Shown here: piece after piece, positions 37,700 to 61,715 of the stretch
Layout: each line of letters opens with the position of its first letter
Position numbering within the stretch: position 1 is the stretch's first letter
Origin: Escherichia phage UP19
Length of the DNA stretch: 64,000 nt
Strand: one strand, 5' to 3'
Sequence record: OX638288
The notes under the pieces: generated by a model
The model's input: only the letters and a program-made list of their open reading frames with translations
Database searches by the model: none
What the model was told of the DNA's origin: nothing
Program-made: the position numbers and the translations under genes

Positions 37700-37728
37700 G
37701 TTTACAAGGTCTATAGACATGATACTAT
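37700..37728 (+). promoter_or_regulatory. Early promoter module (GTTTAC, 17 bp, TACTAT)
   Basis: GTTTAC 37700-37705; TACTATAGGCCTATCAA box. Confidence 0.6.
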
Positions 37729-49959: not shown

Positions 49960-50376
49960 ATGACTCGTATCAACCTTACCTTAGTATCTGAATTGGCTGA
50001 CCAACACTTAATGGCTGAATACCGTGAATTACCACGTGTTTTCGGTGCAGTTCGTAAGCATGTTGCTAACGGTAAACGTGTTCGTGATTTTAAAATCAGC
50101 CCTACTTTTATCCTTGGTACAGGCCATGTTACATTCTTTTATGATAAGCTTGAATTTTTACGTAAGCGACAAATTGAGCTTATAGCCGAATGTTTAAAAC
50201 GTGGATTCAATATCAAGGATACTACTGTCCAAGACATTTCCGATATTCCACAGGAATTCCGTGGTGATTATATTCCTCACGAAGCTTCTATCGCTATTTC
50301 ACAAGCCCGTTTGGATGAAAAAATTGCACAGCGTCCTACCTGGTACAAATATTATGGTAAGGCTATTTACGCTTAA
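49960..50376 (+). CDS. denV: Endonuclease V (pyrimidine-dimer DNA glycosylase)
   Basis: [31 protein letters not shown].. appears near-identical to T4 DenV as remembered. Confidence 0.92.
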
Positions 50377-50418
50377 TTAAATCCGTGATAGAATACTTCT
50401 ATCAACTTAAGGAATAAT

Positions 50419-50718
50419 ATGAAAACTTATCAAGAATTTATTACAGAAGCCAAAGCTCCTAAAGCATTCCAAATAGGTGTCCAAGGCACCTTAGACCAAG
50501 AATATGTTGATGCTATTGTAGCAAGCCTCGGTAAACAGGGCGTACAAGTGGATTTGGTTGATTTTACTAAAGGTAATACTTTTAATATTGTTACATCTAA
50601 AGGCTCTTTAGCTAAAGTTAAAAAGGCCTTTGGTGTAGCCCAAGCATACGAAATCGACCACTCTGAATTAGAAAATAAAGGTCGCCAGAATACAATTAAA
50701 GGTTCTGGTTCTTTCTAA
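50419..50718 (+). CDS. Internal-protein-like gene (MKTYQEFITE|AK)
   Basis: Capsid-targeting leader; 99 aa against 100 for T4 IPII. Confidence 0.6.
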   Translation: MKTYQEFITEAKAPKAFQIGVQGTLDQEYVDAIVASLGKQGVQVDLVDFTKGNTFNIVTSKGSLAKVKKAFGVAQAYEIDHSELENKGRQNTIKGSGSF

Positions 50719-50878
50719 TAAAGGCAAGCCGACCCTCTCCTCATGAACGTCGCATCCTCTGAGTGATGGACCTTTCCCTACCTGTAATAAGGTCGAGCCC
50801 AAGTGCGGTAAAGGGTTTACATACGGATACATGGATGAATTATGTGCCAAGGAACGGCCCCACAACTAAGAGACCACT

Positions 50879-51406
50879 ATGAAATTTTTAACTCCCATTT
50901 ATCTAACCTTAATGCACGCCTTCGCTGAACGCGCCATTGAACGTTTAGACTCAGACCAATATACCTGGTACGAACCCACTTCAAGAATGCAAGAGTTTGG
51001 TACTCTTCGACTTGACGGCGGGCGTCAAACAGGTAAAACAAGTGCCCTTGCCCAGTTCGCAGCTGATTGGGTTTCCAAGGGTAATGATGTGATTGTTATG
51101 TCAAGTTCTTCGCATCGCTCACGAGAAATCTGTAATATAATAAAAAGGGTTTCTAAGGCCCAACCACACCTTCAAGTAGAAGGTCCTGGGTTTGTTGTAT
51201 ATGATACCATGCGTTCATTTTTAGACGAAGATAACTTCCATAAGTATCGTGGTCTATCAGTTACTCGATTATTGATTATTATCGAAGAGCCAATGCGCCT
51301 TCCATCGATGGATAAGTTCTATGAAGCTTACCAGGTAATGATTAACAAATTTATGTGCCAGGGTTCTAAACCTCTGCCACTGTTCTTTGTGATAGGAATG
51401 CAATGA
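50879..51406 (+). CDS. Small P-loop NTPase-like protein
   Basis: Walker A-like GGRQTGKTS and Walker B-like LLIIIEE. Confidence 0.45.
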   Translation: MKFLTPIYLTLMHAFAERAIERLDSDQYTWYEPTSRMQEFGTLRLDGGRQTGKTSALAQFAADWVSKGNDVIVMSSSSHRSREICNIIKRVSKAQPHLQVEGPGFVVYDTMRSFLDEDNFHKYRGLSVTRLLIIIEEPMRLPSMDKFYEAYQVMINKFMCQGSKPLPLFFVIGMQ

Positions 51407-51699
51407 TGACTGATGAAGAGCTTTTTGAGTTCTGCTATTTCTCACGTAAGGTTCGAAGAGAGGACCTTACTGCAAATTTCGAATATGCTTATTTCTATCC
51501 ATTAGAATATGTATTCATGACAGGGCCCTTTAAGGGCTCTCGTTTTAGATGTCATGCCCCAAGCATCCGATTAATGAAACAGGTTCCTTACTTCACTCTC
51601 GAGTTCATCTCAGGCCCGTGTAAGGGTATTATTACTCGCAGTCTCTTGACGTATGACCAAGAGATTCATATGATTTCTGACTGGAAAAAATATGTCTAA
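51403..51699 (+). CDS. Hypothetical protein
   Basis: 98-aa ORF overlapping the upstream stop. Confidence 0.45.
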   Translation: MMTDEELFEFCYFSRKVRREDLTANFEYAYFYPLEYVFMTGPFKGSRFRCHAPSIRLMKQVPYFTLEFISGPCKGIITRSLLTYDQEIHMISDWKKYV

Positions 51700-51910
51700 A
51701 TTGACAATTGAAGGCTCTGATGCAGTCCTGAAAAGATTTGTTGAATGGTTTAATGGGCCGGGTGAACAAGACTTTCTGGAAGTCTGGAACGGTGGCCAGT
51801 GGAATGGTAAAGAAATAGTTTACCCGACTACTTATATCTCTGTATGTGGTGGGATCGACGGCCTTCGTTTGGTAGAATATGATATTGCAACAGGTGAGGA
51901 AGTGAAATGA
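51692..51910 (+). CDS. Hypothetical protein
   Basis: 72-aa ORF. Confidence 0.4.
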   Translation: MSKLTIEGSDAVLKRFVEWFNGPGEQDFLEVWNGGQWNGKEIVYPTTYISVCGGIDGLRLVEYDIATGEEVK

Positions 51911-52185
51911 TTGAAGATATCAAAGGTTACAAGCCACATACCGACGATAAAATCGGTAAAGTGAATGCCATTAAAGATGCTGAAGTCCGATTAGGCTTAA
52001 TCTTTAAAGCATTAGAAGAAGAATATGTTGAAGCCTTTACATGCTCAGGTGTTGATAAAATGAGTGATGAAGAATTCAACCTCACCCATGAACGCCTCGC
52101 CCAGATTCGTACGGCAATCGAACGCTTGAAAGAAGCTTCTATGTGGGCGTGTCGTTCCGTTTTCCAGCCCGAGGAAAAATACTAA
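51907..52185 (+). CDS. Hypothetical protein
   Basis: 92-aa ORF. Confidence 0.4.
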   Translation: MIEDIKGYKPHTDDKIGKVNAIKDAEVRLGLIFKALEEEYVEAFTCSGVDKMSDEEFNLTHERLAQIRTAIERLKEASMWACRSVFQPEEKY

Positions 52186-52190
52186 AAGCA

Positions 52191-52219
52191 GTTTACATCT
52201 CCTGTAGACGTGGTACTAT
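52191..52219 (+). promoter_or_regulatory. Early promoter module; spacer CTCCTGTAG pairs with the regB SD CTACAGGAG
   Basis: GTTTAC 52191-52196; TACTATAGACCTATCAA. Confidence 0.65.
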
Positions 52220-52247
52220 AGACCTATCAACTACAGGAGATTACAAA

Positions 52248-52706
52248 ATGTCAGAAATTAATTCAGAAGTATTCATCCGCCGCAACAAATTACGTCGACA
52301 GTTCGAAACCGAATTTCGTGAACTTAACGCGTCCATCAAAAAAGCCGCCATTAAGAGTGGTGTCCCAGCTTTCTTTATTAAGTACTCTAATCACTTGTTG
52401 GACCGTGCTATCCAACGTGAAATTGACGAAAAATATGTTTTCTCTTTGTTCAAGAAGCTCCACAATCATGTTAAAGAAATCCATGAATTTTTAATCCAGG
52501 AGCCTCTTCCTGACGTAGAATCTGAAATTGTCCCGGGTAAAGTGTATCGACCACTGCGTCTCGAGATTACCGATAAAACCTTATGGTTAGGTATGACCGT
52601 AGATCGTAAACATCCTGATAAAGGATATTCATTAAAATGCCGTATGGCATTTGTTAACTCTAAACGTTTAGAAGGTAAAACCAGCACTAAAGTAATCTAT
52701 CTTTAA
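52248..52706 (+). CDS. regB: RegB sequence-specific endoribonuclease
   Basis: ..EVFIRRNKLRR.FE.EFR.. and ..HLLDRAIQREIDE.YVF..LF.. resemble T4 RegB; about 152 aa. Confidence 0.85.
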   Translation: MSEINSEVFIRRNKLRRQFETEFRELNASIKKAAIKSGVPAFFIKYSNHLLDRAIQREIDEKYVFSLFKKLHNHVKEIHEFLIQEPLPDVESEIVPGKVYRPLRLEITDKTLWLGMTVDRKHPDKGYSLKCRMAFVNSKRLEGKTSTKVIYL

Positions 52707-52718
52707 TAATGAGGTCTC

Positions 52719-53258
52719 ATGAAAAAAGTATTAGCCACTTTACTATTGACAGTTAGTATGTCTGCCTATAGCGTAGAGCCTACTTTCAGTAATGAACAAC
52801 TCGATAATTTACATTATGCGTATGCTTTCGGTGAACAATACCAAAAGTCGGGAAAGTTCAAAGAAAACCCTAATCAAAAAGGATTAGGATATATAATGGC
52901 CGGATTATTATGGCAGGAATCATCTGCTGGAATTAATCAAGGTTTAAATAAAGATAAGCACCATGCTTATGGCATGTTCCAAAATTACTTGCCTACGTTA
53001 AGAAGTCGTGTTCAACAGGTAGGTTGGAAGATGTCAGACAAAGAAATAATTCGTATGGTCCAAAAACGACAGAACAGTGCCTCTTGGGCCTACATTGAAC
53101 TGTCTTATTGGATTGATGTTCACAAAGGTGACCTGAGAAAAGCGATTGCTTCTTATAATGCGGGCTGGAATGTCAAAGCAGGCAGTAAATATGCTTCCGA
53201 AGTTCTAGAAAAGGCCAATTACCTAAAATCTAAAAAGATGTTTGAGGCGGTATATTAA
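52719..53258 (+). CDS. Secreted lytic transglycosylase-like protein
   Basis: Signal peptide; SLT motifs ES (WQESSAG), GMFQ and YNAG. Confidence 0.6.
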   Translation: MKKVLATLLLTVSMSAYSVEPTFSNEQLDNLHYAYAFGEQYQKSGKFKENPNQKGLGYIMAGLLWQESSAGINQGLNKDKHHAYGMFQNYLPTLRSRVQQVGWKMSDKEIIRMVQKRQNSASWAYIELSYWIDVHKGDLRKAIASYNAGWNVKAGSKYASEVLEKANYLKSKKMFEAVY

Positions 53259-53615
53259 ATGATTAAACAGATGACTATAGCGCTTATGTTTATTGCTCCG
53301 GGAGTATTAGCATCACAGGTTGATGATACAAATAATTCAATTGTCGAGTATGCCACCCGTACAGCAAAAGATTATTGTCATCCGAGTAATACTGAATGTG
53401 TTATTGAATTCAGTTCAAAAATAACAGCTGCTTTTAAAGATGGACAGAACGACGTCGAGCATCGCCGAATGAAAGAGAAAACTCTTTCTAAAAGATACGA
53501 GCAACGTCTAAACGTTACTGAATGTGTTCCATCTGATAAAAAGTACAAAGAAATGTGCGCGTCTATGGTAGACAGACTCGTTGACTCTTACAACCGAGGG
53601 CTAAACTCTAAATGA
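53259..53615 (+). CDS. Secreted small protein
   Basis: Signal peptide MIKQMTIALMFIAPGVLASQ; 118 aa. Confidence 0.45.
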   Translation: MIKQMTIALMFIAPGVLASQVDDTNNSIVEYATRTAKDYCHPSNTECVIEFSSKITAAFKDGQNDVEHRRMKEKTLSKRYEQRLNVTECVPSDKKYKEMCASMVDRLVDSYNRGLNSK

Positions 53616-54079
53616 TTATTGATTATATTAAGGGCGATATCGTCGCCCTGTTTCTTCAAGGCAATAATGTTGCACACGGGTGTAACTGCTTTCACACAAT
53701 GGGTTCAGGTGTAGCAGGTCAATTGGCTAAGGCGTATCCACCTATTCTTGCTATCGATAAAACCACTTATTTAGGTGATATAGCAAAACTTGGAACATAT
53801 ACCCAAGCCACAGGTAATAATGGACAAATTTGCTATAATTTATACACCCAATACGAACCAGGCCCTAATCTTGATTACGGTGCTTTAGTAAACTGTATGA
53901 TAGAATTAAACCATACTTCAAAAGGTCTTTTGTTTAAACCGAGAATTTATATTCCTCGCATTGGCTGTGGTATTGCTGGTGGTGATTGGGACAAGGTTTA
54001 TCAATTGATTAATTTGTTTACTCCTGATATTAATTTAGTGGTGGTAGATTATGAAAGCTCATTATCCGCATCCGTTTGA
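53612..54079 (+). CDS. Macro-domain protein (ADP-ribose binding or processing)
   Basis: GDIV..(N/H)..HTMGSGVAGQLAKAYP and IPRIGCGIAGG match macro-domain signature positions. Confidence 0.6.
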   Translation: MIIDYIKGDIVALFLQGNNVAHGCNCFHTMGSGVAGQLAKAYPPILAIDKTTYLGDIAKLGTYTQATGNNGQICYNLYTQYEPGPNLDYGALVNCMIELNHTSKGLLFKPRIYIPRIGCGIAGGDWDKVYQLINLFTPDINLVVVDYESSLSASV

Positions 54080-54263
54080 CCCTAAAAACAAAGCGGAAAT
54101 TATTCGCCGCTGGACCGAAACCCGAGTAACTAAATGCCCTATAAAAAGTCATCACAATACTGATAAATGGTATATAGGTGAATATGTTGAATATACTTTT
54201 ATAGATAAAAATAAACGTAAACAGTATGTAGAAGAATACTGCTTAAAGGTGCAATGGTTATGA
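54051..54263 (+). CDS. Hypothetical basic protein
   Basis: 70-aa ORF; start overlaps the end of the macro gene. Confidence 0.35.
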   Translation: MKAHYPHPFDPKNKAEIIRRWTETRVTKCPIKSHHNTDKWYIGEYVEYTFIDKNKRKQYVEEYCLKVQWL

Positions 54264-54466
54264 GCCAAACCCGAATTCTTAAAACGGCTAAATGTGAAAA
54301 ATGTGAATGGCCGGTAATCGCAGCTTTATGCAACGATGAAATGGAATGTGAATTTGATTACTGGTGGTACTGTTCTAATAAAGGATGTTCTAATCATAAG
54401 GGTGAAGGTTTTCATTCCGGTTATTGCGAACATCCTAAATTTGTGCGATATGGTGAACCTAAATGA
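54254..54466 (+). CDS. Cys-rich, probable zinc-ribbon protein
   Basis: CEKCEW..C..C..C..C.. pattern. Confidence 0.45.
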   Translation: MVMSQTRILKTAKCEKCEWPVIAALCNDEMECEFDYWWYCSNKGCSNHKGEGFHSGYCEHPKFVRYGEPK

Positions 54467-54648
54467 GTTTAAGTATTAGTCAGAAAAGTAGATTGTTTGA
54501 GCTTATCCATGAGCTTTTGGATGAGCATACAGAAGCAAACGCTTTTTACGATGAATATGGCCCGCTATCTCCCGAACAGCAAGAAGAATTTGCTGATCGG
54601 TTTGATGAGAAAGAAAACGAATTAATAGCTTATGTGAATACGCTTTAA
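54463..54648 (+). CDS. Hypothetical acidic protein
   Basis: 61-aa ORF. Confidence 0.4.
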   Translation: MSLSISQKSRLFELIHELLDEHTEANAFYDEYGPLSPEQQEEFADRFDEKENELIAYVNTL

Positions 54649-54657
54649 GAAGGTAAT

Positions 54658-55230
54658 ATGGCTCAACTTTATTTTCATTATGCGGCAATGAACTCAGGTA
54701 AGACCGCTTCATTGCTAACGGCAGCTCATAACTACAAAGAACGCGGTATGAGCGTGCTCCTTTTAAAGCCTGCGATAGACAATAGAGAATCAAGCCATAC
54801 CATTTCGTCTCGTATAGGGATTAGTCAAGAGGCTAATGCGGTGACTCCGGATATGGACCTATACGAGTTCTATCGTTGGGCTGAATCTCAAAAAGATATC
54901 CACTGTGTGTTTGTGGATGAAGCACAATTCTTAGAACCTGCACAGATAAAACAACTGGCAAAGATAGTAGACAATTATAATGTTCCAGTTATGTGTTATG
55001 GGCTAAGAACTGATTTTCAGGGTAAACTGTTTCCTGGTTCTGCTGAATTACTCGCTACGGCAGATAAACTCGTTGAGTACAAAGGTGTGTGCCATTGCGG
55101 CCGTAAAGCTACTATGACTGCTAGGGTCCAAGATGGTGTCGCAATTAAGGACGGAGCCCAAGTTTCTATAGGTGGCAACGATTCTTACGTGTCATTGTGC
55201 AGGAAGCACTGGATAGAAATAACGAGTTGA
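54658..55230 (+). CDS. tk: Thymidine kinase
   Basis: P-loop AAMNSGKTASLL; CHCGRKAT..LC zinc site; 190 aa. Confidence 0.9.
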   Translation: MAQLYFHYAAMNSGKTASLLTAAHNYKERGMSVLLLKPAIDNRESSHTISSRIGISQEANAVTPDMDLYEFYRWAESQKDIHCVFVDEAQFLEPAQIKQLAKIVDNYNVPVMCYGLRTDFQGKLFPGSAELLATADKLVEYKGVCHCGRKATMTARVQDGVAIKDGAQVSIGGNDSYVSLCRKHWIEITS

Positions 55231-55237
55231 GGGTACT

Positions 55238-55516
55238 ATGGACCTAAATTCAAAGATTTTAATTCTAGCGTTCGCTGTGGCCATCTCTTATATTGTTCTT
55301 TCGCCCATCATGGATGATGCGGCTTACAAAAGAGAGATAGAAGTTGTAGCAGCGACGTATAATGCTAATAATAAAGAATGCCCTAATAAAAATGGAATGG
55401 ATTTAATTAAAGCACATTATATGCTTTCCATTACCTCGCCTATACAGAGGAATTGGGTTGAATATAATTTTAACGACGTGTTCTATTCTTATTGTCGTAA
55501 GCTTAAAAAGCTATAA
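55238..55516 (+). CDS. Small membrane protein
   Basis: N-terminal transmembrane helix; 92 aa. Confidence 0.45.
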   Translation: MDLNSKILILAFAVAISYIVLSPIMDDAAYKREIEVVAATYNANNKECPNKNGMDLIKAHYMLSITSPIQRNWVEYNFNDVFYSYCRKLKKL

Positions 55517-55519
55517 ATA
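55512..55519 (+). promoter_or_regulatory. Late promoter TATAAATA upstream of rI
   Basis: TATAAATA about 90 bp before the rI ATG. Confidence 0.4.
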
Positions 55520-55609
55520 GTAATACTAACCGTAGAGCTTTAGCTTTTGGTAATCGCTATCGGTTAAGGCCGAAAGGCAAATTCGTATAAAATAACAAAG
55601 GACTTTTGT

Positions 55610-55903
55610 ATGGGTATTTTCCGTACAGTGGCTTGTATCCTTATGATTGGATGTTTAAGCCCAACATCTTCACTAGCAAACAAATCCGACCCTAAATTGA
55701 TGGACGCCTTTGCTAGTAGTGCGATGCCAGTTTATGCGCAAATGAGTAAACCTAGTGTAAAGGCCTCCGAAGACTACTGGGCTTATGTAACTGCTTCTTG
55801 GAAAATTTCAAATTGCAATACAATAGAGTCTTGCTCGATTGAAGGTCAGGCTATCGGAGAACGATACGCTAAACTAATGAAGGTAGATGATGAAATTCAA
55901 TGA
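55610..55903 (+). CDS. rI: RI lysis-inhibition antiholin-like periplasmic protein
   Basis: 97 aa as in T4 RI; N-terminal signal/anchor; LSP..AN.DP block resembles T4 RI; adjacent to tk. Confidence 0.65.
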   Translation: MGIFRTVACILMIGCLSPTSSLANKSDPKLMDAFASSAMPVYAQMSKPSVKASEDYWAYVTASWKISNCNTIESCSIEGQAIGERYAKLMKVDDEIQ

Positions 55904-56273
55904 TTTCGTACTTAGTCGAGGGACTGAAGTAGATTCTTATATTGGTTGGCTGTTGGTTTCTTTAGCCTATTTTAAGTCAGCCCATTTGGAAACCAAAAGC
56001 TATGCAAGACACAAAGCATATGACTTCTATTATACAGAAGTTCAAGGACCACTAGACCAGTTCAGTGAACAGTATTTAGGATTTAGTGGCAAAGAATATA
56101 AAGCATCACTACCATCTGCTTCAGAACTGCCTAAAGACCCCATAGATTTTCTTGATGAACTTATTAAAGCGTCTGATAAAATCTACAAAAATCTTCCTAA
56201 GGCCATCCAATCGACTTTGGACGACATCACTGGTGTCTTTTACCAGACTAAGTATTTGTTAACGTTAGAATAA
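55887..56273 (+). CDS. Hypothetical protein
   Basis: 128-aa ORF followed by a terminator. Confidence 0.45.
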   Translation: MMKFNDFVLSRGTEVDSYIGWLLVSLAYFKSAHLETKSYARHKAYDFYYTEVQGPLDQFSEQYLGFSGKEYKASLPSASELPKDPIDFLDELIKASDKIYKNLPKAIQSTLDDITGVFYQTKYLLTLE

Positions 56274-56277
56274 TCAA

Positions 56278-56305
56278 AGGTCTCACTTCGGTGGGACCTT
56301 TTTTC
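56278..56305 (+). terminator. Intrinsic terminator
   Basis: AGGTCTCAC-TTCG-GTGGGACCT followed by TTTTTT. Confidence 0.65.
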
Positions 56306-56313
56306 GTTTTAGT

Positions 56314-56342
56314 GTTTACTTCCTCTAGGAACGTGATACTAT
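56314..56342 (+). promoter_or_regulatory. Early promoter module
   Basis: GTTTAC 56314-56319; TACTATAGACCTATCAA. Confidence 0.6.
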
Positions 56343-56370
56343 AGACCTATCAACTAATGAGGAGAACAGT

Positions 56371-56607
56371 ATGAAACTTACAAGTACTACGGTTTCATTG
56401 GAATATGAAATCAATAACCGCCTCCTTGAGATTAAGATATTCGACGACCGAAGTATCTTTGCTGACTACCGAGGGTACAGAATTCGCCTAGAAAAGGACG
56501 AGCTCAAGGAACCACGGCTCCTTAAAGACACATTAAAGGGATGTGGGTGTAAGCTGAAGACCACTCAAGCCCAAGAATTAATTTCTACTATCAACAAATA
56601 CTGGTGA
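56371..56607 (+). CDS. Hypothetical protein
   Basis: 78 aa; GAGGAG SD. Confidence 0.45.
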   Translation: MKLTSTTVSLEYEINNRLLEIKIFDDRSIFADYRGYRIRLEKDELKEPRLLKDTLKGCGCKLKTTQAQELISTINKYW

Positions 56608-56611
56608 TATT

Positions 56612-56794
56612 ATGTTAACTACTGAACAGATTGAGAAAATTATTAAACTCGCCCAGCATATTGAAAACGCATCCAATGACCTAGCTGTTGAATATTGCGA
56701 AGGTTATTCATATTCTGGAATAGAGCAGTGTAAACGAGATTTGGCTAACTCCAAAGCGGCCTTGGCTGAGTATCTTAATGAGTTGAAAGCATAA
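56612..56794 (+). CDS. Hypothetical protein
   Basis: 60-aa ORF. Confidence 0.4.
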   Translation: MLTTEQIEKIIKLAQHIENASNDLAVEYCEGYSYSGIEQCKRDLANSKAALAEYLNELKA

Positions 56795-57051
56795 TGGCTG
56801 TTGGATTTGCTAAGGACGGAGCCGAACAGCTCGAAATGGAAGCGGTCGTTCAGGCCGCTATAGTACACGCCCGTAAGCAAGTAGCAGTTGAACGTGAATC
56901 GGCTAAATATTGTTTTGATTGTGATGAAGAGATTCCTGAAGCACGACGTCAAGCTATCAAAGGTGTGATATATTGTATAGGTTGTCAGTCAATGCATGAT
57001 GAAATTTTTAAACGTGAGCCACGTAACTGTTGGCACAGGAGCATGAGATGA
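56794..57051 (+). CDS. DksA/TraR-family C4 zinc-finger protein
   Basis: CFDCDEEIPEARRQAIKGVIYCIGCQ is a CxxC-x17-CxxC finger of DksA/TraR type. Confidence 0.6.
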   Translation: MAVGFAKDGAEQLEMEAVVQAAIVHARKQVAVERESAKYCFDCDEEIPEARRQAIKGVIYCIGCQSMHDEIFKREPRNCWHRSMR

Positions 57052-57132
57052 TTTACTATCTTGAACCTTGGGCTTGGCTTACAATGCTTATTGGTCCAGT
57101 TTTAATAGGTTTATTCTTTTCATGGCTAGCGA

Positions 57133-57340
57133 GGAAACTGTAATGTTATACGACCCAAGTGGTAATTCTGAAGACGGTATTATTGTCCTTTTGGCAGATG
57201 TTGAAGAGTCTGACGATGACATTTTTGTTAAAGATTGGGAAGAAAAAGGCGGAATCACGCTCCAACAAGAAAATGATATGATTTGTCTGAATGCGAGCCA
57301 AGTCGAAGAACTGTACAGTATTTTAAAACACAACCGTTGA
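57133..57340 (+). CDS. Hypothetical acidic protein
   Basis: ATG 57133 after GAGGAAA; 68 aa. Confidence 0.4.
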
Positions 57341-57350
57341 GGAACAGAAA

Positions 57351-57911
57351 ATGATTATTGAAACAACTGAATTGTTTGGCGAACTGACCGCTGAAGTAGT
57401 TAATAATGCAATTGAGCTTTGTCAAGAAGACGATAAAATCGTACTGACTATCCAAGATATTAAACCACTTTATGATTTAAAGGTTTTGGATAAAGATGGG
57501 TATCTTGATGGACGCCATAGAGCATCGTTTGATATTAACGACGATGTATGGGCCCAGATTTATAAAAATGAAGACGGATTTAATATCGAAACTGATACTG
57601 AATGTCTAAGCATTAGGAATTCTAGTAATTTCTTTAAATGTATTTTTAAACTGTTCCAGGAAGAATGCAAGCCAGAAGTTGAATGGAAAGTTCCAGGTCA
57701 AGATGCAGTGATTCGTTCTAGTGAAACATTTGAAGGTGATGAAGAAGAACTGGATTATGATACCGAATTAACCGTGTATCAACACCAGGGTCGTGATTTG
57801 CTATCCTTGACCCAAAGACACGACGGTGAAAATGAAGTGGTATTTACTAAAGACGAGCTAAAAGTTTTAGTCTCTTATCTGAACTCTGTTATCCCAACTA
57901 TGAACCCTTAA
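57351..57911 (+). CDS. Hypothetical acidic protein
   Basis: 186-aa ORF. Confidence 0.5.
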   Translation: MIIETTELFGELTAEVVNNAIELCQEDDKIVLTIQDIKPLYDLKVLDKDGYLDGRHRASFDINDDVWAQIYKNEDGFNIETDTECLSIRNSSNFFKCIFKLFQEECKPEVEWKVPGQDAVIRSSETFEGDEEELDYDTELTVYQHQGRDLLSLTQRHDGENEVVFTKDELKVLVSYLNSVIPTMNP

Positions 57912-57921
57912 GGAAAATATT

Positions 57922-58374
57922 ATGATTATCAATTCAAACTCTTGGCACGTTAAATTACACGACCGTTTTTATGACCGTCATTCTCGACCACACTCTTTGT
58001 GTGCTTATTTCTGGAAAATGGTTTGGGCTTGTTTTGCTTGTGCTGTTGTTGCAGGTAGTACGCTTTTTGGATTAACTGTTGCAGGAGCTGGTGTATTAGA
58101 GCATTTCTTTGTATTAAGTACTCCTGTTCTGTTGAGTCTAGGGTTTGTTTTAGGGTTGATTGCAATAGCTCTTATTATTGCTCTATCCATTGGTTTGGCA
58201 TTAGGTGCGATGAATTTACACGCGTGGTATGATGCACGTAGAGAAGAAAAGGAATGGCAACGTATTCAAGCTGAGCGTGAAGGCCGAGAAACTAAAGAAA
58301 ATATCGTCGTCCAATACATTAAAGCTCGTAAATCTAAGATGTGTCCTGTAATTCACTTCGAGAACAAAGAATGA
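57922..58374 (+). CDS. Integral membrane protein
   Basis: Two or three transmembrane helices; 150 aa. Confidence 0.5.
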   Translation: MIINSNSWHVKLHDRFYDRHSRPHSLCAYFWKMVWACFACAVVAGSTLFGLTVAGAGVLEHFFVLSTPVLLSLGFVLGLIAIALIIALSIGLALGAMNLHAWYDARREEKEWQRIQAEREGRETKENIVVQYIKARKSKMCPVIHFENKE

Positions 58375-59381
58375 GAACAGTTATGAAAGGCTACTTCGGT
58401 AGCCATCTTTATGGAACAAGTACTCCGGAATCTGATGTCGATTTTAAAGAAATCTTTGTTCCACATCCGCGTGATATTCTGTTAGGTACGGCAATGAATC
58501 ATACCAACCTGAACACGAATAACACTGCTTCCAAAAACACTAAAGATGATGTTGACCATGAGCTTTACAGCCTGAAATATTTCTTTAAACTGGCTGCTGA
58601 AGGCGAAACCGTTGCTCTGGATATGCTCCACACTCCGCCTGAAATGGTGGTTAAATCCGATTTACCTGATGTATGGAAATTTATCCAAGATAACCGTTCG
58701 CGTTTCTATACAACTAACATGAAAGCCTATTTAGGGTACGTTCGTAAGCAAGCTTCTAAATATGGTGTTAAGGGTTCTCGTCTGGCTGCTCTGCGTGGTG
58801 TACTGGCTATCGTTAACCAGATTCCTGAACAGTGGGTTGATTATCAAGAAGATGGTTCTACTAAGCAACGACGTACTAAGGTAGAAGATATTAAGCACCG
58901 GCTCCCTGAAAACGAGTTCTGTGAATGGGTATTTCATAACCACGAGAAAACAGGTCCTCAAACGTTCTATACTGTCCTCGGACGTAAGTACCAAACTACT
59001 CTGTCATTGGTCGAGCTTAAGCAATCTCTGAATAAACTTGATGCAGAATATGGCGAACGTGCTCGTAAGGCTGAAGCTAATGAAGGTATTGACTGGAAAG
59101 CTCTGAGCCATGCTTATCGTGCTGGATATCAGTTGAAGGAAATCTATATGACCGGTGACCTTCAATATCCTTTACGAACAGCACCATTTATCCTTGAAAT
59201 CAAACAGGGGCTACATGCTTTTAAAGATGTACAGGCTGAGCTCGAAGCTATAGTTGATGAAGTCGAAACCAATGCCATCTGGGCAGCTAAGAACGGTATG
59301 CCTGATAAGGTAGATATGAAGTTCTGGGACAAGTTCGTTGAGCAGGTTTACCTAGAAAACCATAACTCGTATTATAAATGA
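58371..59381 (+). CDS. Pol-beta-superfamily nucleotidyltransferase-like protein
   Basis: GS-x9-SDVD motif (YFGSHLYGTSTPESDVDF) and downstream acidic residue (ALDML); 336 aa. Confidence 0.55.
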   Translation: MRTVMKGYFGSHLYGTSTPESDVDFKEIFVPHPRDILLGTAMNHTNLNTNNTASKNTKDDVDHELYSLKYFFKLAAEGETVALDMLHTPPEMVVKSDLPDVWKFIQDNRSRFYTTNMKAYLGYVRKQASKYGVKGSRLAALRGVLAIVNQIPEQWVDYQEDGSTKQRRTKVEDIKHRLPENEFCEWVFHNHEKTGPQTFYTVLGRKYQTTLSLVELKQSLNKLDAEYGERARKAEANEGIDWKALSHAYRAGYQLKEIYMTGDLQYPLRTAPFILEIKQGLHAFKDVQAELEAIVDEVETNAIWAAKNGMPDKVDMKFWDKFVEQVYLENHNSYYK

Positions 59382-59383
59382 TA

Positions 59384-59405
59384 AAAGGCCTTCGGGCCTT
59401 TTTTG
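59384..59405 (+). terminator. Intrinsic terminator
   Basis: AAAAGGCC-TTCG-GGCCTTTTTT. Confidence 0.7.
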
Positions 59406-59424
59406 GGTTTAGTGCAAAAAAGTA

Positions 59425-59453
59425 GTGTACATCTGCTTTAAACATGTTATTAT
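59425..59453 (+). promoter_or_regulatory. Early promoter module (GTGTAC / TATTAT variant)
   Basis: Near-duplicate of the 59737 promoter. Confidence 0.5.
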
Positions 59454-59503
59454 AGACCTATCAGCTAAAGAGCTGAAAACTTAAACCAAACGGAGATATA
59501 AAA

Positions 59504-59734
59504 ATGTACGCTATCAAAAATTACAAATACGGTTCTTACACTACTAACTTGATCGCTCTGGAAGATACCTTTAAAGCTGATCGTGCTGAAGAATATGAAA
59601 TTATTGAAGCTGTAACTAAAAACAAAGGTAAACAAGTTGTTATGCCTAATGGCCGTAAAGCTGCTCTTTATACAGTAAATGGTGAAACATGGGCCCGCTA
59701 TAAAGATGGCTTCTGTGAAATTATTGCAAAATAA
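59504..59734 (+). CDS. Hypothetical protein
   Basis: 76 aa; flanked by duplicated promoters. Confidence 0.45.
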   Translation: MYAIKNYKYGSYTTNLIALEDTFKADRAEEYEIIEAVTKNKGKQVVMPNGRKAALYTVNGETWARYKDGFCEIIAK

Positions 59735-59736
59735 GT

Positions 59737-59765
59737 GTGTACATCCATTTCAAACATGTTATTAT
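59737..59765 (+). promoter_or_regulatory. Early promoter module (GTGTAC / TATTAT variant)
   Basis: GTGTACATC..AAACATGTTATTATAGACCTATCA. Confidence 0.5.
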
Positions 59766-59800
59766 AGACCTATCAAATCTACTGAGTGAAGGAGAATAAA

Positions 59801-60781
59801 ATGTTAACTATCAAAATCAACAAAGGTATCTATCGCGGTAATGAAATCTCTGGTACGTTCATGAGTTCAGGTAAAACCTGGTTCCCAAATAAAATTCATG
59901 AATCTGAAGCTCACCTCGGTGATGGCAAGGTATTCGTGCAGATTGATGGTGTTGAACGTGGTGTATGGGTGTTCAAATGTGACGTTGAAATGGAAGGCGC
60001 TGAAGCTCCTGCAATGGTTACTGAATCCGCTGAAGAAATGAAACATCGTATCAACAAACGTTTTAAAGTAATGAACATGATGACTAACGGAATCATCGAT
60101 GGTAAAATTCGTTCCCTTATCATCTCTGGTGCCGCAGGTATTGGTAAAACTTATTCTTTGGATAAAGCATTACAGAATGCCCACGAAAATGAAACTATCG
60201 AATATAAATCAATCAACGGAAAGATTAGTGGAATCGGTCTTTACGAGCAGCTTTGGAATAACCGCGGCCCTAATAGTGTTCTTCTTATTGATGATGTTGA
60301 TGTATTCTCTGACATGGATATTCTGAACCTTCTGAAAGCCGCATTGGATACCGGTGAGAAACGTAAGGTGTGCTGGAGCACTTCAAGTTCTTATCTCGAT
60401 GATAAAAATATCGATAAAGAATTCGAATACGAAGGCACCATCGTGTTCATCACCAACGTTGATATTGACCGTGAATTAGAGCGTGGAACTAAACTTGCTC
60501 CGCACCTCCAGGCTTTAGTATCTCGTTCAGTTTACTTAGACCTCGGAGTTCACTCTAACGAAGAGATTATGGTTCGTGTTGAAGACGTTATCCTGTCCAC
60601 TGATATGATGCAAAATCGAGGTCTGACCGATGCTGAGACTTATCAAGCACTGGCATGGATGAAGGCTAATGTATCTCGTCTTCGTAACGTATCATTACGT
60701 ACAGCTCTTTATCTGGCGGACTTCATTGCCACCGATAAAAATGACTGGAGCGAAATCGCTGAAGTTACACTTCTGAAATAA
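59801..60781 (+). CDS. P-loop (AAA-like) ATPase
   Basis: Walker A GAAGIGKT and Walker B LLIDDVD; ATG 59801 after AAGGAGA. Confidence 0.6.
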   Translation: MLTIKINKGIYRGNEISGTFMSSGKTWFPNKIHESEAHLGDGKVFVQIDGVERGVWVFKCDVEMEGAEAPAMVTESAEEMKHRINKRFKVMNMMTNGIIDGKIRSLIISGAAGIGKTYSLDKALQNAHENETIEYKSINGKISGIGLYEQLWNNRGPNSVLLIDDVDVFSDMDILNLLKAALDTGEKRKVCWSTSSSYLDDKNIDKEFEYEGTIVFITNVDIDRELERGTKLAPHLQALVSRSVYLDLGVHSNEEIMVRVEDVILSTDMMQNRGLTDAETYQALAWMKANVSRLRNVSLRTALYLADFIATDKNDWSEIAEVTLLK

Positions 60782-60791
60782 AGGTGAAATT

Positions 60792-61133
60792 ATGTTTGAA
60801 CAATTTATTTACAATCTTTATAAAGCAGGTTTGGCCCATCGTAATGCCATGAAACAGTCCGTCGAGGACTATGATAAAGAAGTTATCGACGGATATACTA
60901 ATAGAGTTTATAAAACAGATTGTGAAGAAGGAGACTACAAGAGACTGCTCTTGGCTGCGAAGACTCAGGCCTTAATAAATCTAGACCGTAAGCAGGTAAA
61001 GTTGGCAGGCGACTTCCGAGGTGAACTCTGCGCCATCAGGAATGAATATCGCATTCGTATTGAACATCAACGGAAACCTAATACCCAATCAGCGTGGTTT
61101 AGTGGACATGCCGGTGAAAAAAGTTTCTATTAG
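60792..61133 (+). CDS. Hypothetical protein
   Basis: 113-aa ORF. Confidence 0.45.
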   Translation: MFEQFIYNLYKAGLAHRNAMKQSVEDYDKEVIDGYTNRVYKTDCEEGDYKRLLLAAKTQALINLDRKQVKLAGDFRGELCAIRNEYRIRIEHQRKPNTQSAWFSGHAGEKSFY

Positions 61134-61135
61134 TT

Positions 61136-61164
61136 GTTTACATCTCCAGTAGAAATGATACTAT
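61136..61164 (+). promoter_or_regulatory. Early promoter module; spacer CTCCAGTAG pairs with the SD CTACTGGAG
   Basis: GTTTAC 61136-61141; TACTATAGACCTATCAA. Confidence 0.65.
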
Positions 61165-61190
61165 AGACCTATCAACTACTGGAGGTTATC

Positions 61191-61715
61191 ATGAACGCTA
61201 AAGATATTTTTTCACTGATTAATTTTAACAATGGTAATTTCAAATCTGAAAAACAAAGCAAGTTCTTTAACGACGTTGCTTGTGGTAATGAGATTACCGT
61301 ATCTGGAGGAGAGATTTACAAAAGCCGTTGGAACTGGATTGCTGTCATTGATTCAGTTGGTATTGTAGAGCTCTATAAAAACACTAACAAAAAACGTACT
61401 CTTCACTGGAGTCGTGAAACCAATCAAGCTTATCAAGCTGAACGTAACAAACGTTTAATGCCTACTGAATCTGACCTGGCAAACGTTAAATCAGATATCG
61501 CTTATTTTGATAACTTGATTGCTGAACAACAAGCGGTTATTGATAAGTTTGATGAAATCAAAGCTTGTAAAGAGATTCCTGAATTCATGCGGGAATCAGT
61601 AAACGAACAATACGCCCTCACTTCAGGTCGTATCGAACAGTACAAATCGCAACGAGCTGAACGCCAAGCTCTGCTTCAGAAATTTGAAGAGCGTTTAAAG
61701 ACGGTTCTCGCATAA
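61191..61715 (+). CDS. Hypothetical protein
   Basis: 174-aa ORF. Confidence 0.5.
   Translation: MNAKDIFSLINFNNGNFKSEKQSKFFNDVACGNEITVSGGEIYKSRWNWIAVIDSVGIVELYKNTNKKRTLHWSRETNQAYQAERNKRLMPTESDLANVKSDIAYFDNLIAEQQAVIDKFDEIKACKEIPEFMRESVNEQYALTSGRIEQYKSQRAERQALLQKFEERLKTVLA

Follow-up and report, generated by a model that had tools for sequence, protein, structure and literature searches.

A DksA/TraR-family zinc-ribbon protein of the YbiI branch in Escherichia phage UP19: a candidate binder of the RNA polymerase secondary channel

TraR from the F plasmid is a zinc-finger protein that binds to RNA polymerase (RNAP) at its secondary channel, where it mimics the joint action of DksA and guanosine tetraphosphate (ppGpp) (PMC2613031, PMC6970531). 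Homologs from phages were characterised in 2022, i.e., lambda Orf73, P2 Orf82, VHML Orf8, VP882 Orf61 and X. bovienii Gp34; all five bound RNAP at the DksA site, inhibited rrnB P1 and complemented a dksA deletion (PMC9239242). Another relative is YbiI from E. coli, the expression of which depends on sigmaS (PMC4447067). The present analysis concerns a gene of this family in a stretch of 64,000 nucleotides from Escherichia phage UP19 (sequence record OX638288), referred to here as the window. The gene is located at 56794..57051 on the + strand, like all other genes of its region, and encodes a protein of 85 amino acids, with an ATG start and a TGA stop codon. Its sequence places the protein securely in the YbiI branch of the DksA/TraR superfamily. 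The favoured proposal, which is considered probable though far from certain, is that it is an early-made zinc-ribbon protein that binds to the secondary channel of RNAP and reprograms transcription initiation without the need for ppGpp.

The phage origin of the gene is clear, as the window shares 99.1% identity with Escherichia phage JS98 (Straboviridae, Tevenvirinae, Dhakavirus), in agreement with an earlier note on this DNA, made from the letters alone, that had called the protein phage-encoded. The protein is 100% identical to JS98 orf95 (YP_001595224.1), annotated as 'hypothetical protein, similar to P. aeruginosa PA4870', while close relatives carry the annotation 'DksA C4-type domain-containing protein', 'zinc finger protein' or 'YbiI'. 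Translation of the open reading frame (ORF) gives MAVGFAKDGAEQLEMEAVVQAAIVHARKQVAVERESAKYCFDCDEEIPEARRQAIKGVIYCIGCQSMHDEIFKREPRNCWHRSMR, which confirms exactly both the position and the CxxC-x17-CxxC spacing reported before. The cysteines (C40-x2-C43-x17-C61-x2-C64) lie within CFDCDEEIPEARRQAIKGVIYCIGCQ and make up a four-cysteine (C4) zinc ribbon (56911..56985, + strand, codons 40–64). All four are invariant across 33 homologs, and their spacing equals that in TraR (C37/C40/C58/C61) and DksA (C114/C117/C135/C138), the comparison sequences being taken from plasmid, phage and E. coli records.

The assignment as a DksA/TraR-like C4 zinc finger, likewise made in the earlier note, is upheld by matches in four collections. 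The protein matches Pfam PF01258 (zf-dskA_traR) with 38.1 bits (E=1.6e-9), which passes the gathering score of 24.9, and PHROG 54 ('DksA-like zinc-finger protein') with E=4.6e-20. Its best NCBIfam match is PRK11019 (YbiI type; NF008243) with 76 bits, where the equivalog cut-off is 96; TIGR02419 (TraR family) follows with 51.5 bits, under its strict cut-off, and the DksA equivalog model (NF033459) gives 13.4 bits versus a cut-off of 105. A sequence search of PDB chains retrieved YbiI (2KGO) with E=3.6e-9 over residues 1–69 and TraR (5W1S/6N57) with E ~2e-4. The protein is thus not a canonical TraR, and it is not a DksA either, as it has no coiled coil and scores far below the cut-off of the DksA model. 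In a hidden Markov model search of 1.84 billion representatives, 2,696 relatives were found at E <=1e-3 and 322 at E <=1e-10, whereas a single cluster was left at 1e-30.

The predicted structure has the layout of TraR, i.e., a single N-terminal helix, a zinc domain and a C-terminal helix. An AlphaFold2 model, built with 32 homologs and with E. coli YbiI left out of the alignment, has a mean predicted local distance difference test (pLDDT) score of 73 and shows a helix at residues 8–28, the zinc ribbon and a helix at residues 62–71; confidence is low for residues 1–6 (pLDDT <50) and 79–85. The predicted N-terminal α-helix (56815..56877, + strand, codons 8–28) is the counterpart of TraR-N (residues 2–27), which runs down the secondary channel, and the predicted C-terminal helix (56977..57006, + strand, codons 62–71) is that of TraR-C, which contacts the β lobe-Si1 (PMC6970531). 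Foldseek comparison with the PDB gave YbiI (2KGO) with E=2e-4, RNAP-bound TraR (6N57_M) with E=4.4e-3, a template modelling (TM) score of 0.54 and a root-mean-square deviation of 4.0 over 67 columns, TraR 5W1S_M with E=1.3e-2 and Chlamydia Dks (6PTG) with E=7.3e-2. E. coli DksA on RNAP (7KHI_M) was matched with E=0.21, and DksA chains have E-values of 0.2 or worse. The earlier note had named an unrelated fold as the outcome that would speak against it; the predicted fold instead matches RNAP-bound TraR.

Profile comparison points in the same direction. With hhalign, the alignment of YbiI-like proteins matches the TraR-family alignment with a probability of 99.4%, residues 19–73 corresponding without gaps to TraR 16–70. 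The TraR-family profile consisted of close F-like TraRs together with lambda Orf73, P2 Orf82 and seven relatives of 71–75 amino acids; a TraR-seeded search for a diverse profile gave almost only close F-like TraRs. Within the aligned region lies the segment IPEARR (56932..56949, + strand, codons 47–52), identical to TraR I44–R49. Residues I47, P48, R51 and R52 are invariant in the homologs, and R51/R52 are the counterpart of the TraR pair R48/R49, of which R48 contacts the β′ rim helices and R49 contacts β′Si3 (PMC9239242). The description 'closely resembling TraR/DksA' given in the earlier note therefore stands for the family and the predicted fold. It does not stand for the remainder, as the YbiI branch is nearer, the profile alignment covers residues 19–73 only, the N-terminal tip is replaced and the protein is not a DksA.

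The N-terminal tip (56794..56829, + strand, codons 1–12, MAVGFAKDGAEQ) is invariant in the phage homologs and replaces the DxxDxA tip of TraR. It begins with MAVGFAKDGA, in which DxxDxA is not found, FxxDxA being the best approximation. The start is typical of the YbiI subfamily, with the motif MAxG[W/F]AxDGA at residue 1, approximately 38–39 residues before the first cysteine (C40). Of the 149 best subfamily representatives, 130 contain MAxG[W/F], which in 106 cases starts at residue 1. The tip consensus of the subfamily is M-A-x-G-W-A-x-D-G-A-V-Q-[DE]-Q, with D8 and A10 each present in 116 of these 130. A reading of the tip as [W/F]xxDxA is possible, i.e., a DxxDxA motif that has an aromatic residue for the first aspartate. 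The tip holds two glycines, G4 and G9, which may let it fold back.

The opposite end of the protein is a basic and aromatic tail (57007..57048, + strand, codons 72–85, FKREPRNCWHRSMR) that is invariant, phage-specific and without a counterpart in TraR. In the phage group (P0001–P0042, 59–94% identical) the invariant ending is FKR.PRNCWHRSMR. The bacterial YbiI proteins and the versions in phages CC31 and JD18 have an equally invariant ending, YNRRGSKDSQLR, and phage 44RR has a third type, NWLRVARPKTMR. These variants are found at 2501–2770 of L013 (CC31), 2459–2725 of L014 (JD18) and 2501–2755 of L015 (44RR), and all tail versions end in [ST]-[QM]-[LM]-R. The tail of the YbiI subfamily (...NRRGSKDSQLR) is not present in the UP19 protein; the FKREPRNCWHRSMR type occurs in 1 of the 149 representatives and the YbiI type in 44.

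A codon-by-codon comparison with the versions of EAWsc9 (94%), EK29 (81%), Moon (76%) and PBECO4 (67%) illustrates how selection acts on the different parts. Codons 1–12 differ from these four phages by 4–7 synonymous and no non-synonymous changes, and the last 14 codons by 2–5 synonymous and 0–1 non-synonymous changes, while the zinc-ribbon core tolerates 4–13 replacements. Conservation within the protein is highest in the tip and the tail, which are the parts that differ from TraR. The gene is under strong purifying selection at the protein level; it is a real and well-conserved gene, and the substitution pattern all but excludes a dead one. In PBECO4, Ser83 is encoded by TCT instead of AGC, the stop codon is TAA and the gene context is unrelated, without a downstream overlapping gene. 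The synonymous changes in the PBECO4 tail indicate that the tail is conserved as protein and not as DNA. A DNA-level cause of the tail invariance, in the form of the AGGAG and ATG overlap with the downstream gene, was rejected as the main cause on account of this version. An antisense ORF (56704–56952, 82 amino acids) was rejected as well, its frame being broken in three of the four relatives (EAWsc9, Moon and PBECO4).

Taken as a whole, binding to the secondary channel of RNAP appears the most likely activity, since the protein retains both the docking residues and the overall architecture, and all tested small family members that share these features bind RNAP. The proposed course of events is as follows. 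A JS98-type T-even phage would make the zinc-finger protein early in infection, after which the zinc ribbon would dock with its IPEARR segment on the β′ rim helices and β′Si3 of the host RNAP. The C-terminal helix would rest against the β lobe-Si1, and the N-terminal helix would run down the channel, bringing the tip MAVGFAKDGA beside the active centre. Short-lived host promoters, such as those for ribosomal RNA and ribosomal proteins, would then be transcribed less, which would free polymerase and other resources for the phage genes. A TraR-like, ppGpp-independent and promoter-specific inhibition and activation is plausible, yet clearly less certain than the binding itself; the direction of the effect is more weakly indicated since the tip differs from the functional DxxDxA. 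Precedents are Gp34, which is still active without the first Asp of this motif, with a half-maximal inhibitory concentration (IC50) of 415 nM (PMC9239242), and the reported rescue of dksA auxotrophy by over-expressed YbiI (PMC2613031). The link to the stringent response that the earlier note had drawn is conjecture.

Several points weigh against the proposed regulatory activity. Firstly, DxxDxA is absent as such from the tip, and the NCBIfam equivalog cut-offs are not reached. Secondly, efforts to place the tip in register with DxxDxA failed: a MAFFT alignment of five sequences was uninformative, and hhalign left residues 1–18 unaligned against the TraR-family profile. When the hhalign register (offset 3) is extended, D8 comes opposite TraR A5, G9 opposite D6 and F5 opposite S2, so that D8 is one residue off TraR D6. 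Thirdly, an offset of 3 implies that the phage protein is approximately three residues longer than TraR at the end facing the active site, where TraR S2 sits 4.3 Å from the catalytic Mg2+ (PMC6970531). A lower activity of VHML Orf8 has tentatively been attributed to an N-terminal extension, and some C4 zinc-finger relatives without DxxDxA do not act like DksA (PMC9239242). Over-expressed YbiI reportedly rescued the auxotrophy of a dksA mutant but not a relA spoT strain ('data not shown'), and its authors favoured a function in iron metabolism (PMC2613031). This is the sole functional datum for the YbiI branch. Lastly, tblastn over the tk–nrdC.4 region of T4 (record positions 50000–61500) detected no homolog, only mobD.3 giving a match. 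T4 thus does without the gene in the syntenic rI–mobD.1 region, which makes it dispensable for the T-even life style.

Part of these observations would also be explained if the protein did bind in the channel but acted there as a plug through its longer aromatic tip (G-F-A-K-D-G-A), either competing passively, so that DksA/ppGpp, GreA and GreB are denied access to the polymerase, or occluding the active centre or the entry of nucleoside triphosphates. Such a plug would insulate phage transcription from the stringent response of the host or aid the shut-off of host transcription. This explanation, the main rival, is possible but rather unlikely. It fits with the conservation of the binding determinants and not of the functional tip, given that the DxxDxA tip is required for the function of TraR, lambda Orf73 and DksA, though not for their binding (PMC9239242). 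It also fits with the longer chain in the profile register and with the tip being the most strongly conserved segment, which clearly does something specific. A precedent exists in Rnk, a channel binder that only competes (PMC9239242). However, the half-motif D8-x-A10 is kept in most of the subfamily and is readable as [W/F]xxDxA. Moreover, the reported rescue of the dksA mutant by YbiI implies a DksA-like activity over mere blocking.

The tail gives rise to a further explanation, in which the zinc ribbon is directed at something else than RNAP. This could be another host or phage protein or a nucleic acid to which the basic tail binds; a role in iron or stress physiology, as once proposed for YbiI, is another option. 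The invariant stretch rich in Arg, Trp and His that TraR lacks speaks for it, together with the fact that some C4 zinc-finger proteins of the family do not act on RNAP. The position of ybiI next to fiu-ybiX and the suggested iron role of YbiI are in line with it too. In addition, TraR from VP882 acts in complex with a partner protein, QisA (bioRxiv 10.64898/2026.07.27.740977). On the other hand, conservation within the core is strongest at the residues by which TraR binds RNAP, and the whole helix-ribbon-helix architecture matches RNAP-bound TraR. No neighbour is conserved across phage genera, so an obligate partner gene is not evident, and the protein has no match among the PADLOC defence models, on which ground a defence or anti-defence link was rejected. 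A target outside RNAP is improbable, and a lesser rival than the plug. Improbable as well is the idea that the YbiI-branch proteins of T-even and jumbo coliphages form a functionally distinct class of secondary-channel proteins, in which the longer aromatic tip A-x-G-[F/W]-A-x-D-G-A would extend into the active centre or occlude it, instead of working like DxxDxA, and the invariant phage-only tail RNCWHRSMR would recruit a second target. Candidates for this target are an RNAP surface modified by the phage, a phage factor and a nucleic acid. If true, lytic phages would have a mode of taking over the polymerase that is new.

Homologs of the gene are widespread among phages. With tblastn, one was found in 671 phage records, and the protein coverage is at least 80% in 403 of these; most of the phages infect Klebsiella, Escherichia, Acinetobacter, Erwinia, Enterobacter or Aeromonas. 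YbiI-like proteins of Rhodobacterales and metagenomes (45–56%) are nearer to the phage protein than the host's own YbiI is. Moon and EK29 hold their 76–81% identical version at the corresponding position, and CC31 (Karamvirus) and JD18 (Jiaodavirus) a 45–48% identical version at the same genome position. In PBECO4, a jumbo phage (348-kb Asteriusvirus), the 67% version is found amid unrelated small ORFs. When the neighbouring genes from eight phages were compared all against all by BLASTP, none was seen to accompany the zinc-finger gene from one genus to another. A conserved partner, such as QisA is for VP882 TraR, was therefore rejected, and the zinc-finger gene behaves as a stand-alone, horizontally mobile accessory gene. 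Its G+C content (56794–57048) is 44.7% compared to 39.8% for the window, a mild difference that is consistent with horizontal acquisition.

The region from rI to nrdC.11 differs greatly among the T-even genera. In Mosigvirus DCP548, only a fusion of 55 amino acids is left, which combines an orf94-like N-terminus with the last 29 residues of the zinc-finger protein. Such fusion ORFs (in DCP548 at L011 2459–2626; proteins P0044, P0048, P0063 and P0065) measure 54–64 amino acids, belong to PHROG 25948 and are present in several phages; their N-terminus is DUF7189-like, and half of the finger and the invariant tail are retained. The fusion has the appearance of a scar left by deletion or recombination, though it is kept in several phages. 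That the UP19 gene itself is no more than a remnant, decaying or without function, in a hyperplastic genome region, as the variability of this region, the lack of the gene in T4 and the Mosigvirus fusion might suggest, is very improbable indeed, given the full-length ORF in 403 phage records, the overwhelmingly synonymous substitutions at both termini, the invariance of the four cysteines and the RR pair, and the apparent translational coupling of the gene to its neighbours behind a predicted early promoter.

This putative T4-type early promoter (56314..56342, + strand) has the sequence GTTTAC-N17-TACTAT, with a TG two bases 5′ of the −10 element, and probably starts the unit that holds the zinc-finger gene. 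It is preceded by an intrinsic-terminator-like hairpin found in a terminator scan (56276..56301, + strand), with an 11-bp stem followed by a T run, which closes the rI / rI.-1 unit. The rI.-1 gene (55887–56273, + strand) is called 'starvation-inducible transcriptional regulator' in RefSeq, its sole Pfam match being DUF5856. GTTTAC is the −35 consensus of T4 early promoters (PMC1524935). The window holds 12 copies of the pattern GTTTAC-N16-18-TAYWAT where 0.28 would be expected (approximately 40-fold enrichment), and 11 of the 12 sites are on the + strand. They span 2828–63838, e.g., at 37700, 38268, 41855, 49903, 52191, 56314 and 61136, mostly with TG[A/G]TACTAT. By their sequence, these sites would represent T4-type early promoters of one family, distributed along the window. 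Early expression of the zinc-finger gene is thus well supported by sequence, and the suggestion of the earlier note that the protein acts early in infection is reasonable.

The first ORF of the unit (56371..56607, + strand, 78 amino acids) has a strong GAGGAG ribosome-binding site and no Pfam match, and is unannotated in the JS98 RefSeq record; EAWsc9 has a mobD.5-like ORF at this place. It is followed by a mobD.3-like ORF (56612..56794, + strand, 60 amino acids, DUF7438), which is 64% identical to T4 MobD.3. The TAA stop codon of this ORF and the ATG of the zinc-finger gene have one base in common (TAATG), suggesting translational coupling. Downstream, the TGA of the zinc-finger gene overlaps as ATGA with an ORF for a hydrophobic peptide of 31 amino acids (57048..57143, + strand, MIYYLEPWAWLTMLIGPVLIGLFFSWLARKL), ahead of which an AGGAG ribosome-binding site is located at 57037–57041. 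Judged by this arrangement, the peptide ORF would be translationally coupled to the zinc-finger gene; it is annotated in DCP548 (93.5% identity) and unannotated in the JS98 RefSeq record. Next come orf94 (DUF7189), mobD.1, a membrane protein gene and nrdC.11 (nucleotidyltransferase). The product of mobD.1 (57351–57911, + strand) has matches to Pfam T4_y05I_N/C (E=1e-40 and 3e-20), described as 'y05I-like putative transcription factor', and may be a second transcription-related protein co-transcribed in the same early unit. A strong bidirectional hairpin terminator after nrdC.11, from the same scan (59383..59402, + strand), is the likely end of the unit.

The T-even phages are a classic model of the stepwise takeover of RNAP, which involves ADP-ribosylation by Alt and Mod, AsiA/MotA, Alc, gp55 and gp33. 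To our knowledge, this picture includes no secondary-channel factor, as T4 does not have one. Even so, hundreds of T4-like and jumbo coliphages possess a TraR/YbiI-type protein encoded in an early operon. If it does bind RNAP, it would add a new layer to the polymerase takeover by T-even phages and provide the first function for the whole YbiI branch, E. coli ybiI included. This kind of protein is already known, as copies from T4-like phages have been annotated since 2006, when the dksA/traR zinc-finger ORF130c of 44RR was tabulated (PMC1524935), and phage TraR homologs were characterised in 2022. The UP19 protein is an ordinary, already annotated family member whose presumed function is derived by homology. 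The literature on YbiI, DksA-like phage proteins and JS98/PA4870 that was searched contained no functional work on a T-even copy, and no experiment is known for the YbiI branch in any phage. What is new is a further member, of the YbiI branch and in a strictly lytic T-even phage. The subfamily tip combined with the phage tail is noteworthy for work on the secondary channel; alone, it does not represent a new kind of system.

Among the known systems, E. coli DksA and the phage protein have the C4 ribbon and its cysteine spacing in common, but DksA has 151 amino acids, a two-helix coiled coil and ppGpp-binding residues, whereas the phage protein lacks these and has 39 residues before the finger. 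The tip D-x-A-x-Q-x-E can be compared by eye with D74-R-A76-A-Q78-E-E80 of DksA, four positions matching without support from any alignment tool. F-plasmid TraR (structures 5W1S and 6N57 with RNAP) shares the helix-ribbon-helix organization, the CxxC-x17-CxxC finger and IPEARR, including R48/R49. As in TraR, there is no coiled coil, and the phage protein is therefore presumably ppGpp-independent. The differences are the identity of only about 27%, the tip, which is MSDEADEA (DxxDxA) in TraR versus MAVGFAKDGA, and the length, with approximately three extra residues at the N-terminus and 12–14 at the C-terminus.

E. coli YbiI (b0803, NMR structure 2KGO, PRK11019/NF008243) is the best match both in sequence and in fold, with 41% identity over residues 1–69. 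The proteins share the MAxG[W/F]AxD.A motif at residue 1, the succession of helix, C4 ribbon and short helix, the IP[EQ]ARR segment and a similar length (88 versus 85 amino acids). YbiI differs by its tail, GYNRRGSKDSQLR versus FKREPRNCWHRSMR, and by its chromosomal location next to fiu-ybiX, while the phage gene is part of an early operon of a lytic phage. The proteins CC31 p107, JD18 gp090 and 44RR ORF130c likewise start with MA.G[W/F] and have the zinc ribbon, and in CC31 and JD18 the gene is also found after rI and rI.-1 and before a membrane protein gene and nrdC.11; they are 38–48% identical, with GWGPSDDGFA tips and other tails. Finally, the five characterised phage TraR homologs are, like the UP19 protein, small, phage-encoded and made in lytic growth, and the ppGpp-free diversion of transcription is proposed here too. 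Those five come from temperate phages, belong to the TraR branch and have a complete or nearly complete DxxDxA, in contrast to the protein described here, which represents the YbiI branch in a lytic T-even phage.

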